From IMG/VR virus record IMGVR_UViG_2703718787_000005: DNA of 4,733 nt; one strand, written 5' to 3'. The stretch is from a virus. Taxonomy: Duplodnaviria > Heunggongvirae > Uroviricota > Caudoviricetes. The notes beneath the pieces are model-generated. The model was not told the DNA's origin, did no database searches, and was given only the letters and a program-made list of their open reading frames with translations. The translations under genes and the position numbers were made by a program. Every line of letters starts with the position of its first letter. Position 1 is the stretch's first letter. Positions 1 through 3,546 of this stretch are shown piece by piece.

Positions 1-177
1 TGACCTCATTTCCCCTTAACGCCGGGGTAGCGGAACAAAAACCTGCTGCATAGTTATTAAAGTTGAACCCTGCCGTCATGTTCTTACGCCTCGGGCTGGC
101 TACTTAACCCCTGACCACTGCCTGGTAACTCGAAGTATTGCCTGGCGTTCTGTGGGGCGGGGTGGGTTGATGAAATA

Positions 178-206
178 ATGATGCACTTTTAAAGTTATGA
201 TGTCAA
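178..206 (-). promoter_or_regulatory. pL-like early leftward promoter (candidate): -35 TTGACA (minus strand, plus coords 206..201), 17-bp spacer, -10 CATCAT (183..178)
   Basis: Seen in sequence: plus-strand TGTCAA at 201-206 is a perfect TTGACA on the minus strand; 17 bp further along is CATCAT (4/6 to TATAAT, with A2 and T6 kept). Operator copies sit in the spacer and just upstream of -35. Orientation and position match lambda pL by inference only. Confidence 0.4.
184..196. promoter_or_regulatory. Operator copy oL-a, CACTTTTAAAGTT (core palindrome ACTTTnAAAGT), inside the pL-like spacer
   Basis: Exact reverse complement of the 13-mer at 1246-1258 in the repressor/cro intergenic region. The core 185-195 is a perfect 11-bp palindrome around a central base. 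Flanked on both sides by ATGATG (178-183 and 197-202). Confidence 0.55.
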
Positions 207-219
207 CACTTATAAAGTT
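207..219. promoter_or_regulatory. Operator copy oL-b, CACTTATAAAGTT (12/13 to oL-a), abutting the pL-like -35
   Basis: One mismatch to the 184-196 13-mer, same orientation, 23 bp downstream of it (start to start, equal to centre to centre). Confidence 0.5.
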
Positions 220-228
220 AGCTTTTGA

Positions 229-258
229 TCAATAAAAACCGCCTCGTGTGAAGCGGTT
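229..258 (-). terminator. Rho-independent terminator candidate downstream of the toxin gene
   Basis: Minus-strand RNA would form a 6-bp stem AACCGC/GCGGUU (plus 237-242 pairing with 253-258) with a 10-nt loop, followed by UUUUUAUU (plus 229-236). No U-tract in the plus direction, so it is unidirectional. It starts 17 nt after the toxin stop. The loop is large, so strength is uncertain. Confidence 0.45.
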
Positions 259-274
259 CTGCGAAAAAAGAGGA

Positions 275-556
275 TTATCCAGGAAATTGTCGTCTGGAGT
301 GGGTGACACTTACTATTTCAACACTCGAAGCGGCTACACGGTACAGAATGATATAGTTAGGATGAGCTACAATCTCACGCAAGCCAAACGCTCTGTCGCT
401 TGATGGGTATAAGTACGGATGTTCAGATAAAGCTAAAACACATGTCTCAATGCGAATCTTTAGCCTGCGTGCGGCATGGAGATTTTCTTTTGCAATATAG
501 GCTACGATCTGACGTAAATCATCACGTGCAGAAGGTAGCCATAAAATGGGCAGCAT
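275..556 (-). CDS. parE2: Type II toxin, ParE/RelE superfamily (ParE-like), 93 aa
   Basis: ORF track protein MLPILWLPSARDDLRQIVAYIAKEN...EIVAHPNYIILYRVAASSVEIVSVTHSRRQFPG has the length and motif pattern I associate with ParE toxins (N-terminal DL..I..YIA, central EHPYLYP, C-terminal YIILYRV...VEI..V.H.RR). Its ATG overlaps the upstream antitoxin stop by one base (TAATG at 558..554). The symbol rests on remembered resemblance to the paaA2-parE2 pair of E. coli O157 prophage; no alignment was run. Confidence 0.85.
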   Translation of the reverse strand: MLPILWLPSARDDLRQIVAYIAKENLHAARRLKIRIETCVLALSEHPYLYPSSDRAFGLREIVAHPNYIILYRVAASSVEIVSVTHSRRQFPG

Positions 557-747
557 TACACACTCCCGCTAGTCGCAGCAATTTGGGCAATGAGATTTTC
601 CATTTCTGCCATTACATCATCATGAGGAATTGCAGGGCGCGGATCTGCAAGATTTGCAGCTACTTTTGCACGTAGCCATTCGTTGTAATTATTTTCTTGC
701 TCAACGGTTTCAAACTCAGAAACCATCGGCGAAAGGGCAGTGTTCAT
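556..747 (-). CDS. paaA2: Type II antitoxin, PaaA2/ParD-like, 63 aa (MNTALSPMVSEFETVEQENNYNEWLRAKV...)
   Basis: I trimmed the 84-aa track ORF to the internal ATG at 747..745, which has a strong RBS (AAGGAGGT, 5-nt spacer). The longer version would overlap the repressor 3' end out of frame and has no RBS. The first ~45 residues match my recollection of PaaA2 antitoxin; the C-terminal ~18 residues do not match what I remember. The stop overlaps the toxin start. Confidence 0.8.
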   Translation of the reverse strand: MNTALSPMVSEFETVEQENNYNEWLRAKVAANLADPRPAIPHDDVMAEMENLIAQIAATSGSV

Positions 748-776
748 AACATACCTCCTTTGGCTTATGATGTAGA

Positions 777-1184
777 CTATGCTCGGTGCCCTTTCTGGGC
801 AGCGAGCCATCTTGCAACAGTGCGCTCCATTGATTCTTTTTTGTCTTTCATGTCTTTAAGCATTTTTTCTTGATCTTCCTCTGGAAATGCTCCGAATGTT
901 TGAAGCAGTTCCATTTGCCTGGGGCCTATTTTCATAGTATCTGGCACCACAACCTGCTCTTCTTCGTTTGGCGGTAACATAAACCAATATGGGGGATAAC
1001 CCGTTACTTCAGAAAGTTTATCAAGATTAGCTGTTGATGGACTTGTGATTCCGTGAACCCACTTTTGTACCGATTGCTGGGCAACACCAATCCTGCGGGC
1101 TAGTTCTGCCTGCTTAAGTCCTGTTTTTTCCAGTACCAATTTTATTCGGTACGTGGTTATTTCAAGGGTGGTCATTCGCTTCAT
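777..1184 (-). CDS. paaR2: Prophage repressor, XRE-family HTH, cI analogue (PaaR2-like), 135 aa, no S24/LexA-like autocleavage domain
   Basis: N-terminal HTH (LEKTGLKQAELARRIGVAQQSVQKWVHG). Divergent from the cro-like gene across a 107-bp operator/promoter region. At 135 aa it is too short for a peptidase S24 domain, and no Ala-Gly / GDSM-type motifs are visible. No Shine-Dalgarno precedes the ATG, so it may be leaderless. The symbol is inferred from gene context and is not verified. Confidence 0.8.
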   Translation of the reverse strand: MKRMTTLEITTYRIKLVLEKTGLKQAELARRIGVAQQSVQKWVHGITSPSTANLDKLSEVTGYPPYWFMLPPNEEEQVVVPDTMKIGPRQMELLQTFGAFPEEDQEKMLKDMKDKKESMERTVARWLAAQKGHRA

Positions 1185-1190
1185 GCATTC

Positions 1191-1219
1191 ATTTTACATA
1201 AAAAAAGTGTAACTAGCAC
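1191..1219 (-). promoter_or_regulatory. pRM-like maintenance promoter (candidate) giving a leaderless repressor mRNA: -10 TAAAAT (1196..1191), poor -35 near 1214-1219
   Basis: The minus-strand hexamer TAAAAT ends 7 nt before the repressor ATG (1184), which has no SD. The -35 is weak, as expected for an activator-dependent promoter. By inference this is the lambda pRM arrangement. Confidence 0.3.
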
Positions 1220-1222
1220 AAT

Positions 1223-1235
1223 CAGCTTAAAGGTG
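1223..1235. promoter_or_regulatory. Weaker operator-like site (oR2-like), CAGCTTAAAGGTG, 9/13 to the operator 13-mer
   Basis: Centre at 1229, 23 bp from the oR1-like centre at 1252 and about 45 bp upstream of the putative pRM start. That is the position from which lambda CI activates pRM. Degenerate, so speculative. Confidence 0.3.
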
Positions 1236-1264
1236 TTGATAAACTAACTTTAAAAGTGTATAAA
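1236..1264 (+). promoter_or_regulatory. pR-like early rightward promoter: -35 TTGATA (1236-1241), 17-bp spacer, -10 TATAAA (1259-1264)
   Basis: Near-consensus sigma70 elements with ideal spacing, about 28 nt upstream of the cro-like ATG; an operator sits in the spacer. Confidence 0.6.
1246..1258. promoter_or_regulatory. Operator oR1-like, AACTTTAAAAGTG (core palindrome ACTTTnAAAGT), inside the pR spacer
   Basis: Identical 13-mer, in inverted orientation, to 184-196; the core 1247-1257 is a perfect palindrome around a central base. Confidence 0.6.
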
Positions 1265-1291: not shown

Positions 1292-1558
1292 ATGCATGAA
1301 TGTTTAAAAAATAAAATTCACCAAAGAGGGTTATCCCAAGCAGGTATTGCTCGTTTGATTGGATTACCGCAACAGGTTGTGTCTCGATGGGCTAATGGTC
1401 AGCAGGTCCCTGCATCAAGGGTTCTGCAACTTTGTGAGATTATGGCGTGGGAGGTTACCCCCCACGAACTCCGACCTGATATTTATCCTAACCCAACAGA
1501 CGGCTTGCCTGCTGAGTTTCAGACTAGCACACAGCCAGCGACGGGAGTTGATTCATGA
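1292..1558 (+). CDS. ydaS: Cro-like HTH regulator, YdaS family, 88 aa
   Basis: SD GGAG 8 nt upstream. HTH (GLSQAGIARLIGLPQQVVSRWANG) followed by the ...ELRPDIYP... motif I associate with YdaS-family Cro analogues of Rac-type prophages. Divergent from the repressor. The stop overlaps the next start (ATGA). Confidence 0.8.
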   Translation: MHECLKNKIHQRGLSQAGIARLIGLPQQVVSRWANGQQVPASRVLQLCEIMAWEVTPHELRPDIYPNPTDGLPAEFQTSTQPATGVDS

Positions 1559-1980
1559 AAATCAAGCATGAGCACATCCGCATGGCGATGAATGCCTGGG
1601 CATATCCTGACGGTGAGAAGGTGCCAGCTGCTGCTATTGCCAGAGCGTATTTTGAACTGGGGATGACATATCCCGAGTTGCACAACGACGACAGGCACAA
1701 CGCGCTCTATCTCAACACCCAAAAGATTTTCCGTTGGCTGGATAAAGACACTCCTGATGCTGTTGAGAAAATTCAGGCATTGTTACCGGCGATCGAAAGG
1801 GCAATGCCACCTCCGCTGGTAGCCCGAATGCGCAGCCACAGTTCCGCTTATTTTCGGGAGCTGGTGGAGACGCAGGAACGGCTAGTGAAAGATATCGATG
1901 ATTTCGTTGCATCAGCGATCGTTCTGTTCGACCAGATGAATCGTGGTGGTCCGGCGGGTAATTCCGTGGCTGTGCATTGA
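1555..1980 (+). CDS. ydaT: YdaT-family protein (annotated in databases as 'toxin YdaT'; functionally a CII analogue), 141 aa
   Basis: Starts MKIKHEHI, as I recall for Rac YdaT. SD GGGAG 7 nt upstream. ATGA overlap with the cro-like gene. It sits where lambda has cII. Confidence 0.8.
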   Translation: MKIKHEHIRMAMNAWAYPDGEKVPAAAIARAYFELGMTYPELHNDDRHNALYLNTQKIFRWLDKDTPDAVEKIQALLPAIERAMPPPLVARMRSHSSAYFRELVETQERLVKDIDDFVASAIVLFDQMNRGGPAGNSVAVH

Positions 1981-2051
1981 CTGAAAATATTTATACCGGA
2001 TCGCTTCCGGCAATTCGTGAGTAAAAAGATTCGGTCTCAGAAGAGGTGAGT

Positions 2052-3092
2052 ATGGCTAATGCCTGGCTCAGATTATGGCATGACATGCCAAATGACCCTA
2101 AGTGGCGAACAATTTCCAGGGTGTCAGGACAGCCAATCGCAACAGTGATGGCTGTGTATATCCACCTTCTGGTGAGCGCGTCACGAAATGTCACGACATG
2201 TCACGGCGTGTCACTACGTGGTCACATTGATGTCACAACGGAAGATTTAGCAAGTGCACTTGATGTGACGGAAGAAGTAATTGATTCAATTTTGCAGGCG
2301 ATGCAGGGGCGGGTGCTTGATGGAGATTTAATCACTGGATGGGAAAAACGCCAGGTAGCGAAAGAGGATAACGGCAACGTTTCGCAAACCGCGAAATCCC
2401 CGGCAGAGCGTAAGAGAGCACAACGCGAGAGGGAAAAATTACGAAAACAGAATGAGGGGTGTCACGATGAGTCACGCATATGTCACGACATGTCACTACG
2501 AGTCACGACAGATAAAGATACAGATAAAGAATTAAACCCCACACATAACGCGCGCATGCGCGAGAGTGCTCCAACCGGTGAGTCGCATGGTGCGCCGTTG
2601 CAGACAGCCGAACCTGAATACCTGGACGGCCTGAGCGAACCGATCGGGAAATTTTCGATGACTACTGTCTGGCAGCCGTCGTCGGATTTTCGACAACGGG
2701 CAGCAGTGTGGGGTATGGCTCTGCCTGAGCCGGAATTTACACCTGCAGAGCTTGCCGCATTCCGGGATTACTGGATGGCGGAGGGGAAGGTTTTCACGCA
2801 GGTTCAGTGGGAGCAGAAATTTGCCCGCCACGTGCAGCACGTCAGGGCACAGGTAAAACCAGTCAGCAAGGGGGTAAACCATGCAGCAGCACCAGGTGGC
2901 ACCGCATCACGGGCAGTTCAGGAAATTCGGGCAGCACGTGAGCAGTGGGAACGTGAAAACGGATTTATCAGCGACGGAAACGGCCTGGAAGCTGTGGGAG
3001 CTTATGGGGGAGGTGTATTCGAACCGCTGGACTCAGAAGAACGGGGCCGCACCTTCGAAGCTCTGGATTGCCCAGATTGGTGCGATGACTGA
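2052..3092 (+). CDS. Replication initiator (lambda O analogue): replisome-organizer-type N-terminal domain, linker, DnaT-like C-terminal domain
   Basis: I take the start at ATG 2052 (SD AAGAGGTGA upstream); the track ORF begins at an in-frame GTG at 2046. N-terminal motifs W.RLWHDMPNDPKW ... TGWEKRQ resemble the phage replisome organizer N-terminal domain. The C-terminal part (FSMTTVWQPSSDF...FTPAELAAFRDYWMAEGKVFT) resembles the DnaT-like domain common in phage initiators. Two iteron arrays lie inside the gene. Family assignments are from memory. Confidence 0.8.
   Translation: MANAWLRLWHDMPNDPKWRTISRVSGQPIATVMAVYIHLLVSASRNVTTCHGVSLRGHIDVTTEDLASALDVTEEVIDSILQAMQGRVLDGDLITGWEKRQVAKEDNGNVSQTAKSPAERKRAQREREKLRKQNEGCHDESRICHDMSLRVTTDKDTDKELNPTHNARMRESAPTGESHGAPLQTAEPEYLDGLSEPIGKFSMTTVWQPSSDFRQRAAVWGMALPEPEFTPAELAAFRDYWMAEGKVFTQVQWEQKFARHVQHVRAQVKPVSKGVNHAAAPGGTASRAVQEIRAAREQWERENGFISDGNGLEAVGAYGGGVFEPLDSEERGRTFEALDCPDWCDD
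2180..2236. repeat. Iteron array 1: six direct GTCAC-containing repeats at 10/10/10/11/11-bp spacing
   Basis: GTCAC starts at 2180, 2190, 2200, 2210, 2221 and 2232, all in the same orientation and on a helical-repeat period, inside the N-terminal domain coding region. Shares an exact 17-mer with array 2. Confidence 0.7.
2461..2506. repeat. Iteron array 2: five direct GTCAC-containing repeats at 10/11/10/10-bp spacing
   Basis: GTCAC starts at 2461, 2471, 2482, 2492 and 2502, in the linker-coding region of the initiator. This is the position where lambda ori lies within O. Confidence 0.75.
2461..2562. other. Probable origin of replication: iteron array 2, then an AT-rich stretch with GATAAAGA x2 (2509-2536), then a 12-bp perfect palindrome CGCGCATGCGCG (2551-2562)
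   Basis: The iterons / AT-rich / palindrome order is what I recall for lambda ori, but that is recollection. All three elements are directly visible in the sequence. Confidence 0.5.
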
Positions 3093-3546
3093 ACAGCAAA
3101 TCCGTCTGGTCTGTCGTCAGTGCATGGACCGCTGCCGGGCGGGTGAAACGTGGCCCCCGGACCTGGCTGAGTTTGTTGCACTGATTTCGGAGAGTGGGGC
3201 AAATCCATTTGGTCTTACGGTGGATGCAGTGATGGAAGAGTACCGGCGCTGGCGCAATGAATCCTGGCGATACGACGGGAGTGATAAATACCCGTGGCCA
3301 CAGCCTGTGCTGTACCACATTTGCCTCGAGATGCGCACCAGAGGGATTGAACGTCAGATGACTGAAAGTGAGCTGAAACGACTTGCGGAACGACTGTTGA
3401 CCAAATGGGCAAAGAATGTTGGTAACGGCATGAGTGTTCCGCCAGTGCGACGACAACTGGAAGGGCCAAAACACCCGCCAGGGCCAACGCCAATTGAGTT
3501 ACTGAAACAGGAATATGAGCGCCGGAAAGCGGCTGGTTTTGTCTGA
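2881..3546 (+). CDS. Lambda P-like replication protein (helicase loader), up to 221 aa; start uncertain (ATG 2881, 3004 or 3085)
   Basis: The C-terminal two thirds align by eye with lambda P as I remember it (YPW motif; MTESELKRLAERLL vs LTDAELRRKAADEL; FVALISESGA vs FVAWCREEA). Resemblance seems to continue upstream of the ATG at 3085, which favours 3004 or 2881. ATG 2881 has the best RBS (AAGGGGG, 6-nt spacer) but overlaps the O-like gene by 212 nt out of frame. Gene finders that forbid long overlaps would probably call 3085. Confidence 0.65.
   Translation: MQQHQVAPHHGQFRKFGQHVSSGNVKTDLSATETAWKLWELMGEVYSNRWTQKNGAAPSKLWIAQIGAMTEQQIRLVCRQCMDRCRAGETWPPDLAEFVALISESGANPFGLTVDAVMEEYRRWRNESWRYDGSDKYPWPQPVLYHICLEMRTRGIERQMTESELKRLAERLLTKWAKNVGNGMSVPPVRRQLEGPKHPPGPTPIELLKQEYERRKAAGFV

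Follow-up and report, generated by a model that had tools for sequence, protein, structure and literature searches.

A palindrome in a rightward early promoter is very probably the core of OR1, one of five 15-bp operator sites in a Rac/CP-933P-type lambdoid immunity region

Gene content of the immunity region

The viral DNA studied here (4,733 nucleotides, IMG/VR record IMGVR_UViG_2703718787_000005, hereafter the window) is the immunity region of a Rac/CP-933P-type lambdoid prophage and matches a prophage of E. coli UTME-9 at 99.9% identity. A leftward operon encodes, in this order, a PaaR-type repressor, a PaaA2-family antitoxin and a ParE toxin (Pfam). The Cro-like ydaS diverges from it to the right and is followed by the genes for a CII-like YdaT, an O-like and a lambda-P-like protein (Table 1); DUF1627 and DUF977 proteins are also encoded in the window (Pfam). 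The operator sites described below lie between the divergent repressor and cro-like genes on core promoter elements, and the strong site recurs at a second early promoter, pL, beyond the repressor gene (184-219). An intrinsic terminator ends the repressor-paaA-parE operon just before the pL -35; its stems differ in relatives, yet by eye, from the alignment, they appear able to pair. An Rfam scan of the window gave no match.

The mechanically called antitoxin ORF (556-810, minus strand, 84 aa) is probably overlong. Homologues are annotated as 63 aa starting MNTALSP, and the ATG at 747, which has a good GGAGG ribosome-binding site, is separated from the repressor stop codon by 29 nt. Positions 1548-1565, spanning the ydaS stop and the ydaT start, carry an exact copy of the experimentally defined YdaT main operator TTGATTN6AATCAA (TTGATTCATGAAAATCAA), and the YdaT encoded here shares 79% identity with the crystallised protein of CP-933P; thus the CII-like/pRE part of the circuit looks conserved, though repressor specificity differs. 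Within the O-like gene, TGTCACG/AGTCACG repeats spaced by 10 bp form two clusters, at 2178-2240 (at least four copies) and 2460-2519 (five copies), which resemble origin iterons such as those of the lambda O gene. A tandem ACAGATAAAGA pair follows at 2508-2530. Window positions 1-170 also occur in the Rac-like prophages of over 4,000 E. coli genomes. This homology breaks off directly at the pL operators, so that the exchangeable immunity cassette has its left boundary there.

Table 1. Features of the immunity region, in window coordinates
Feature	Position	Strand	Description
pL	178-206	-	TTGACA-17-CATCAT; leftward promoter; 10/12 against consensus in promoter scan
OL1	183-197	-	TAACTTTAAAAGTGC; in pL spacer; exact 13-mer copy (184-196); 14/15 against OR1
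OL2	206-220	-	TAACTTTATAAGTGT; abuts pL -35; one-mismatch 13-mer copy (207-219); 14/15 against OR1
Intrinsic terminator	232-262	-	hairpin dG -15.5 kcal/mol, z -4.1, U-tract
ParE toxin	275-556	-	Pfam ParE_toxin, E 3.6e-16
PaaA2-family antitoxin	~556-747	-	Pfam PaaA2, E 6.3e-20
PaaR-type repressor	777-1184	-	135 aa; Pfam HTH_3, E 5.6e-14
pRM	1184-1219	-	-10 TAAAAT (1191-1196), weak -35 GTGCTA (1214-1219), ATG at 1184
OR3	1196-1210	+	ACATAAAAAAAGTGT; fills pRM spacer
OR2	1222-1236	+	TCAGCTTAAAGGTGT; last T is first base of pR -35
pR	1236-1264	+	TTGATA-17-TATAAA; rightward promoter of ydaS-ydaT; read from sequence
OR1	1245-1259	+	TAACTTTAAAAGTGT; contains the 11-bp palindrome 1247-1257; fills pR spacer
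YdaS	1292-1558	+	Cro-like, 88 aa; Pfam YdaS_toxin and HTH_3
YdaT	1555-1980	+	CII-like; Pfam
O-like protein	2046-3092		DnaT domain; Pfam
Lambda-P-like protein	2881-3546		Pfam

Promoters and operator sites

The original prediction, made from this DNA alone, placed a palindrome, ACTTTAAAAGT, at 1247-1257 in the spacer of pR and two weaker copies to its left. Re-reading the window in full confirmed the coordinates. The palindrome consists of five plus five paired bases around an unpaired centre base and lies inside the 17-nt spacer between TTGATA (1236-1241) and TATAAA (1259-1264). Measured against the 13-mer AACTTTAAAAGTG, the copies at 1223-1235 (CAGCTTAAAGGTG) and 1197-1209 (CATAAAAAAAGTG) match at 9/13 and 8/13 positions as predicted, and the centres at 1252, 1229 and 1203 give the distances of 23 and 49 bp. 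The third copy had also been said to overlap the pRM -10. As a 13-mer it only abuts this hexamer (1191-1196, minus strand); the overlap holds, by one base, for the 15-bp site. In two further respects the prediction is refined here: the conserved unit is 15 bp, neither 11 nor 13, and a two-site left operator at 183-220 had been overlooked.

The five 15-bp sites are tightly interlocked with the promoter hexamers. The last T of OR1 is the first base of the pR -10, and the first A of OR3 is the last base of the pRM -10 (on the plus strand). The centre of OR2 lies at -45 relative to the pRM start (A1184). Taken together, the consensus of the five related sites is about ACACTTT-n-AAAGTGT, that is, of the ACACTTTnAAAGTGT type. 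pR lacks the usual final T in its -10 and was therefore not listed by a consensus promoter scan, and its -35 and -10 are conserved in relatives. The scan gave an alternative rightward promoter, TTTACA-18-CACAAT (1193-1222), which was rejected because its -10 is not conserved in relatives.

The pL and pR modules form a 35-nt inverted repeat (181-215 versus 1227-1261, 80% complementary by repeat finder), which flanks the repressor-toxin-antitoxin operon. The 13-mer holds the equivalent spacer position in both promoters, and OR2 is positionally equivalent to OL2. A pL promoter with its own copy of the 13-mer means that the original prediction had found one arm of an OL/OR pair; OL1 and OL2 lie about 1.06 kb from OR (OL-OR 1,062 bp). 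A third pL operator was searched for at its expected position and none was found; the terminator occupies this position, which is highly variable in relatives.

In the window, in the related loci L013, L014 and L001 (see below) and in CP-933P, the repressor ATG (1184 in the window) sits 6 nt past the pRM -10. This constant distance implies a leaderless repressor mRNA and a protein starting MKRMTT. RefSeq starts the homologues at an internal ATG (1175 in the window; 132 aa); the spacing indicates that the leaderless ATG 1184, and not this internal one, is the repressor start.

Recurrence and conservation of the sites

The exact 13-mer of OR1 recurs at OL1 and a one-mismatch copy is found at OL2, both on the minus strand. 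Shuffling the window 2000 times with its dinucleotides preserved gave on average 0.0065 sites with one mismatch or none, and never two in one shuffle. The strong site is thus beyond chance.

Among 5,426 complete E. coli genomes, 36 have the intergenic region (88-100% identity), and we aligned 11 representatives of these prophage loci. OR1 is invariant over its 15 bp save for the centre base (A/T) and one A/G change. In OR2 the centre is A, T or G; two further changes, G1232 to A and T1222 to A, are both towards the consensus and give ACAGCTTTAAAGTGT. OR3 has a single variable column, T1199 to C, giving ACACAAAAAAAGTGT (ACAC...GTGT). Variable columns number 6 of 45 in the operators and 18 of 47 in the rest of the intergenic region outside the promoter hexamers (Fisher p = 0.009, which is only approximate because the sequences are related and not phylogenetically independent). 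The conservation of OR3 could stem from other constraints on pRM. In the pL alignment OL1 is conserved with its centre base flipping between A and T while the flanks vary, and OL2 is kept in all 11 relatives, bar a single substitution in one of them. At 1241-1244, between the pR -35 and OR1, the 11 relatives have eight different tetramers, with invariant blocks on either side.

Repressor residues 1-60 are near-identical where the operators are common, with one residue differing in each of two loci (L006 and L002). The C-terminal half of the repressor is more divergent among the same loci.

Sites change with the repressor recognition helix

A single regular expression, with CAT-N6-ATTTTA and the pR hexamers as anchors, pulls three 15-mers (O1, O2 and O3) at fixed positions from every relative. 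In the window the recognition helix is AQQSVQKW and the three sites are those of Table 1. The metagenomic locus L013 has the same helix with O1 TAACTTTAAAAGTGT, O2 TCAACTTTAACGTGT and O3 ACATGAAAAAGGTGT. With the helix AQQTVQKW, L014 has GCACTTTATAAGTGT, GCACTAAATTGGTGT and ACATAAAAAAAGTGC; its O1 is symmetric in CACTT/AAGTG. The O157:H7 paralogue L001 has the helix TQQTVQQW and the sites ACAGTTTTTTATTGT, ACAATAAAAAACTGT and ACAGGTAAATACTGT, which follow the pattern ACARTn5AYTGT and stand at exactly the three positions of the window relative to the promoter hexamers. Here O2 is the exact reverse complement of O1 (15/15), and O3 matches O1 at 11/15 positions. Thus, across the window, L013, L014 and L001, site sequence co-varies with the recognition helix at fixed positions. 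The right half of the third site changes from AGTGT in the window to ACTGT in L001, together with O1, O2 and the helix. This joint change is the strongest argument that the weak OR3 of the window is a real operator position.

L013 (contig SRR28961931_7518) shares the repressor DNA-binding domain and has an identical OR1 but no toxin-antitoxin genes, a PLD-domain gene being found downstream instead. The toxin-antitoxin module is thus an optional passenger of this immunity type.

The repressor and YdaS

The repressor consists of an N-terminal 434-like helix-turn-helix and a C-terminal PaaR2-like domain. Its last 46 aa are 59% identical to CP-933P PaaR2 (E 6e-18), while the N-terminal domain does not align. 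Pfam gave no match to Peptidase_S24 in the 135 aa, and induction would thus not proceed via RecA-mediated cleavage. The repressor is not a cleavable protein of the lambda CI type, a further refinement of the original prediction. PaaR2 has likewise been described as lacking an S24 peptidase (Jurenas et al. 2021, PMC8630535).

Among solved structures the DNA-binding domain is closest to that of the 434 repressor, in a weak alignment (E 6.5e-4) in which Gln-Gln-Ser is kept at the start of helix 3. The best solved relative of YdaS is the prophage Cro 3bd1, and helix 3 of YdaS also opens with QQ. In 434 complexes Gln28 and Gln29 read the outer ACA and Gln33 reads position 4. The residue aligned to Gln33 is Lys in the window type, where sites end in ACAC, and Gln in L001, where they end in ACAA or ACAG, a pattern of residue and base that would fit a 434-like code.

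Discussion

Our interpretation of this locus starts from what the sequences show: the sites recur, are conserved, keep fixed places with respect to the promoter hexamers and change in step with the recognition helix. The palindrome is very probably the core of OR1, the promoter-proximal operator of pR, in a Rac/CP-933P-type lambdoid switch with five 15-bp sites. The lambda-like OR1/OR2/OR3 layout anticipated by the original prediction is supported by its conservation in related E. coli prophages, by the inverted paralogous pL module with a strong site at the position equivalent to OR2, and by three other immunity variants, in which the sites keep these positions and differ in sequence along with the recognition helix. 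It is also supported by published EMSA and DNase I footprints on the homologous paaR2-ydaS intergenic region of CP-933P, in which PaaR2 protects about 78 bp continuously and YdaS two stretches (PMC8630535).

We infer from this arrangement which proteins bind the sites, their order of affinity and occupancy, and how pRM activation and looping might come about. OR1 to OR3 lie between the divergent pRM, serving the repressor-paaA-parE operon, and pR, serving ydaS-ydaT, with OL1 and OL2 in pL. Dimers of the 135-aa PaaR-type repressor would read the sites through the 434-like helix-turn-helix, first filling OR1/OR2 and OL1/OL2 and thereby occluding the spacers and -35 hexamers of pR and pL. From OR2, which adjoins the weak pRM -35 GTGCTA, the repressor may stimulate pRM, and at high concentration it would fill OR3 and shut pRM off (autorepression). 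Cro-like YdaS would read the same sites and compete with the repressor, making the switch bistable. A bridge between OL and OR may form by oligomerisation of the PaaR2-like C-terminal domain.

A different way of reading the sites takes them mainly as direct repeats of the right half AAAGTGT, three at OR on one strand, bound by tandem subunits of an oligomer, with the palindromy of OR1 being secondary. The right halves of the OR sites are indeed near-invariant (ACACTTT, ACACCTT, ACACTTT) and the left halves diverse (TAACTTT, TCAGCTT, ACATAAA), the 9-mer AAAAGTGTA is directly repeated in OR1 and OR3 on the same strand and occurs nowhere else in the window, and the CP-933P authors, too, noted a balance of direct and inverted repeats (PMC8630535). 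The promoter-distal half-sites of OR1, OL1 and OL2 also read TAAC and not ACAC as the right halves do. Against this reading, the left half TAACTTT is invariant among these three sites, the centre base flips between A and T as expected of a symmetric dimer site, the O1 of L014 is symmetric, and O1 and O2 of L001 are exact reverse complements. We regard a direct-repeat reading as unlikely.

It is also conceivable that only OR1, with OL1 and OL2, is a true operator, that the 9/13 and 8/13 copies arose by chance in AT-rich promoter DNA, and that pRM is otherwise regulated. The original prediction had itself warned that the weak copies might be chance. By 13-mer match count this caution is justified and the copies are insignificant, since 15 window positions have at most 4 mismatches and 55 at most 5. 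OR3, moreover, has one good half-site and 3/7 symmetric pairs; it matches OR1 at just 9/15 positions, a score reached by about 0.9% of window positions. In the 15-bp frame the picture differs. OR2 matches OR1 at 11/15 positions, a score that, besides the three O1-type sites, one unrelated window position equals, and it sits exactly where pL has a 14/15 site; OR3 has the 9-mer AAAAGTGTA in common with OR1 alone. At least 10/14 matches to ACACTTTnAAAGTGT are found in the window at exactly the five proposed sites, a consensus partly derived from them. The substitutions in relatives shift OR2 and OR3 towards the consensus, the second and third sites of L001 are unmistakable against its own O1 at identical positions, and in CP-933P the protection by PaaR2 is continuous over about 78 bp. 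Chance resemblance of OR2 and OR3 is accordingly judged distinctly improbable.

That the palindrome is instead the autoregulatory operator of a PaaA-ParE complex is extremely improbable: type II antitoxins usually autoregulate via promoter palindromes and the toxin-antitoxin genes are in the pRM operon, but the 63-aa antitoxin of the window matches only the PaaA2 stability-determinant family, PaaA2 is reported without any DNA-binding motif (PMC8630535), the site is in pR and pL, neither of which drives these genes, and L013 keeps OR1 without them. An IHF or Fis site, or an RNA hairpin, was also considered for the palindrome and seems improbable; a stem of 5 bp, A/T only, would probably be too weak for folding, and further copies of the site lie in promoter spacers.

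A tblastn search of deposited phages revealed no close homologue; the best match is 48% identical over the repressor DNA-binding domain only, and the Gifsy-1 and Gifsy-2 repressors are about 35% identical to that of the window. Contigs covering one genome per species, scanned with repressor peptide patterns, yielded no confirmed relative, and for the Enterobacter (P0025) and Sodalis (P0044) homologues no encoding contigs are on record. The variant is present in the 36 E. coli genomes and in none of the deposited phages. Judged from sequence, these sites would be the operator set of a PaaR/YdaS/YdaT switch variant that is uncharacterised, and would thereby define its immunity specificity. The variants form a clean natural series in which repressor specificity diverges while promoter architecture stays fixed, and the immunity cassette carrying toxin-antitoxin genes exists in several heteroimmune forms. 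This kind of switch has already been studied experimentally in CP-933P, and the window appears to be an ordinary variant of it with a new specificity. The current understanding of lambdoid switches is unchanged.

Comparison with known systems

With lambda the window shares divergent pRM and pR promoters (about 87 bp apart in the window, by our placement of the starts), three operators (spaced 23-26 bp in the window), a leaderless repressor mRNA, a distant OL, and CII-like and Cro-like partners. Proteins and sites have no sequence homology to those of lambda, and the window repressor is not cleavable. Toxin-antitoxin genes stand in the place of rexAB, and the window OL has two sites. The OL-OR distance is about 2.4 kb in lambda. 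The OR2 centre lies about 3 bp farther from the pRM start than in lambda, which makes activation of pRM uncertain.

Phage 434 resembles the window in its three OR sites with ends ACA.../...TGT, A/T-rich centres and a poorly conserved middle base. The outer operator bases read by the 434 repressor are ACA; the window sites end in ...GTGT. The 434 operators are 14-bp ACAA-N6-TTGT, whereas those of the window, at 15 bp, have an odd base in the centre. At the fourth position the window has C, paired with Lys where 434 has Gln33, and the C-terminal domain of the window repressor is unrelated and lacks a RecA-cleavable peptidase. The TAACTTT promoter-distal halves of OR1, OL1 and OL2 make a simple symmetric reading of the 434 type imperfect. 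A more elaborate conjecture, which we consider doubtful, combines a 434-like head with a non-cleavable, oligomerising PaaR2-type tail. The variants (AQQSVQKW with ACAC, TQQTVQQW with ACAA or ACAG, AQQTVQKW with GCAC) would then embody a one-residue-to-one-base code at operator position 4, and an octamer might read asymmetric sites with invariant right and degenerate left halves, unlike lambda or 434.

L001 (NZ_CP064167, 1.15 Mb, O157:H7) has the same toxin-antitoxin genes and the same pL arrangement as the window; its repressor and YdaS are 66% and 49% identical to those of the window. Its different helix and ACARTn5AYTGT sites make it presumably heteroimmune. This locus was first taken for CP-933P, and the primer sequences of the CP-933P paper (Jurenas et al. 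2021, PMC8630535) showed it to be a different paralogue. It is possibly a paaR1-type system; the literature on paaR1 offered nothing usable for naming it.

The true locus of CP-933P, a cryptic prophage of E. coli O157:H7, was fetched with a primer sequence from the same paper. There, PaaR2 is CI-like, YdaS Cro-like and YdaT CII-like; the promoters are named PRM933P, PR933P and PL933P, PaaR2 and YdaS repress PR and PL, and the element, whose switch is bistable, has a PL copy (PMC8630535). Furthermore, paaR2 has been shown to be leaderless, and PaaR2 reportedly forms an octamer in solution (PMC8630535). CP-933P and the window have in common the order parE, paaA, repressor, divergent ydaS and ydaT, several operators across an intergenic region of 97-107 bp, one of them in the pR spacer, a pL copy downstream of the toxin-antitoxin genes, and a leaderless repressor with its ATG 6 nt past the pRM -10. 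In contrast, the repressor DNA-binding domains are unrelated in sequence, the CP-933P operators are 18-bp with GTTTAGTAA-type half-sites (TTTAGTAATCACTAAA type) and those of the window are 15-bp of the ACACTTTnAAAGTGT type, and three pL sites are reported in CP-933P versus two found here. Because of the unrelated DNA-binding domain and the 18-bp sites, only the architecture transfers from CP-933P to the window, not the sequence specificity. With only the C-terminal 46 aa in common and with different operators, the window is a heteroimmune relative of CP-933P, not the characterised element itself.
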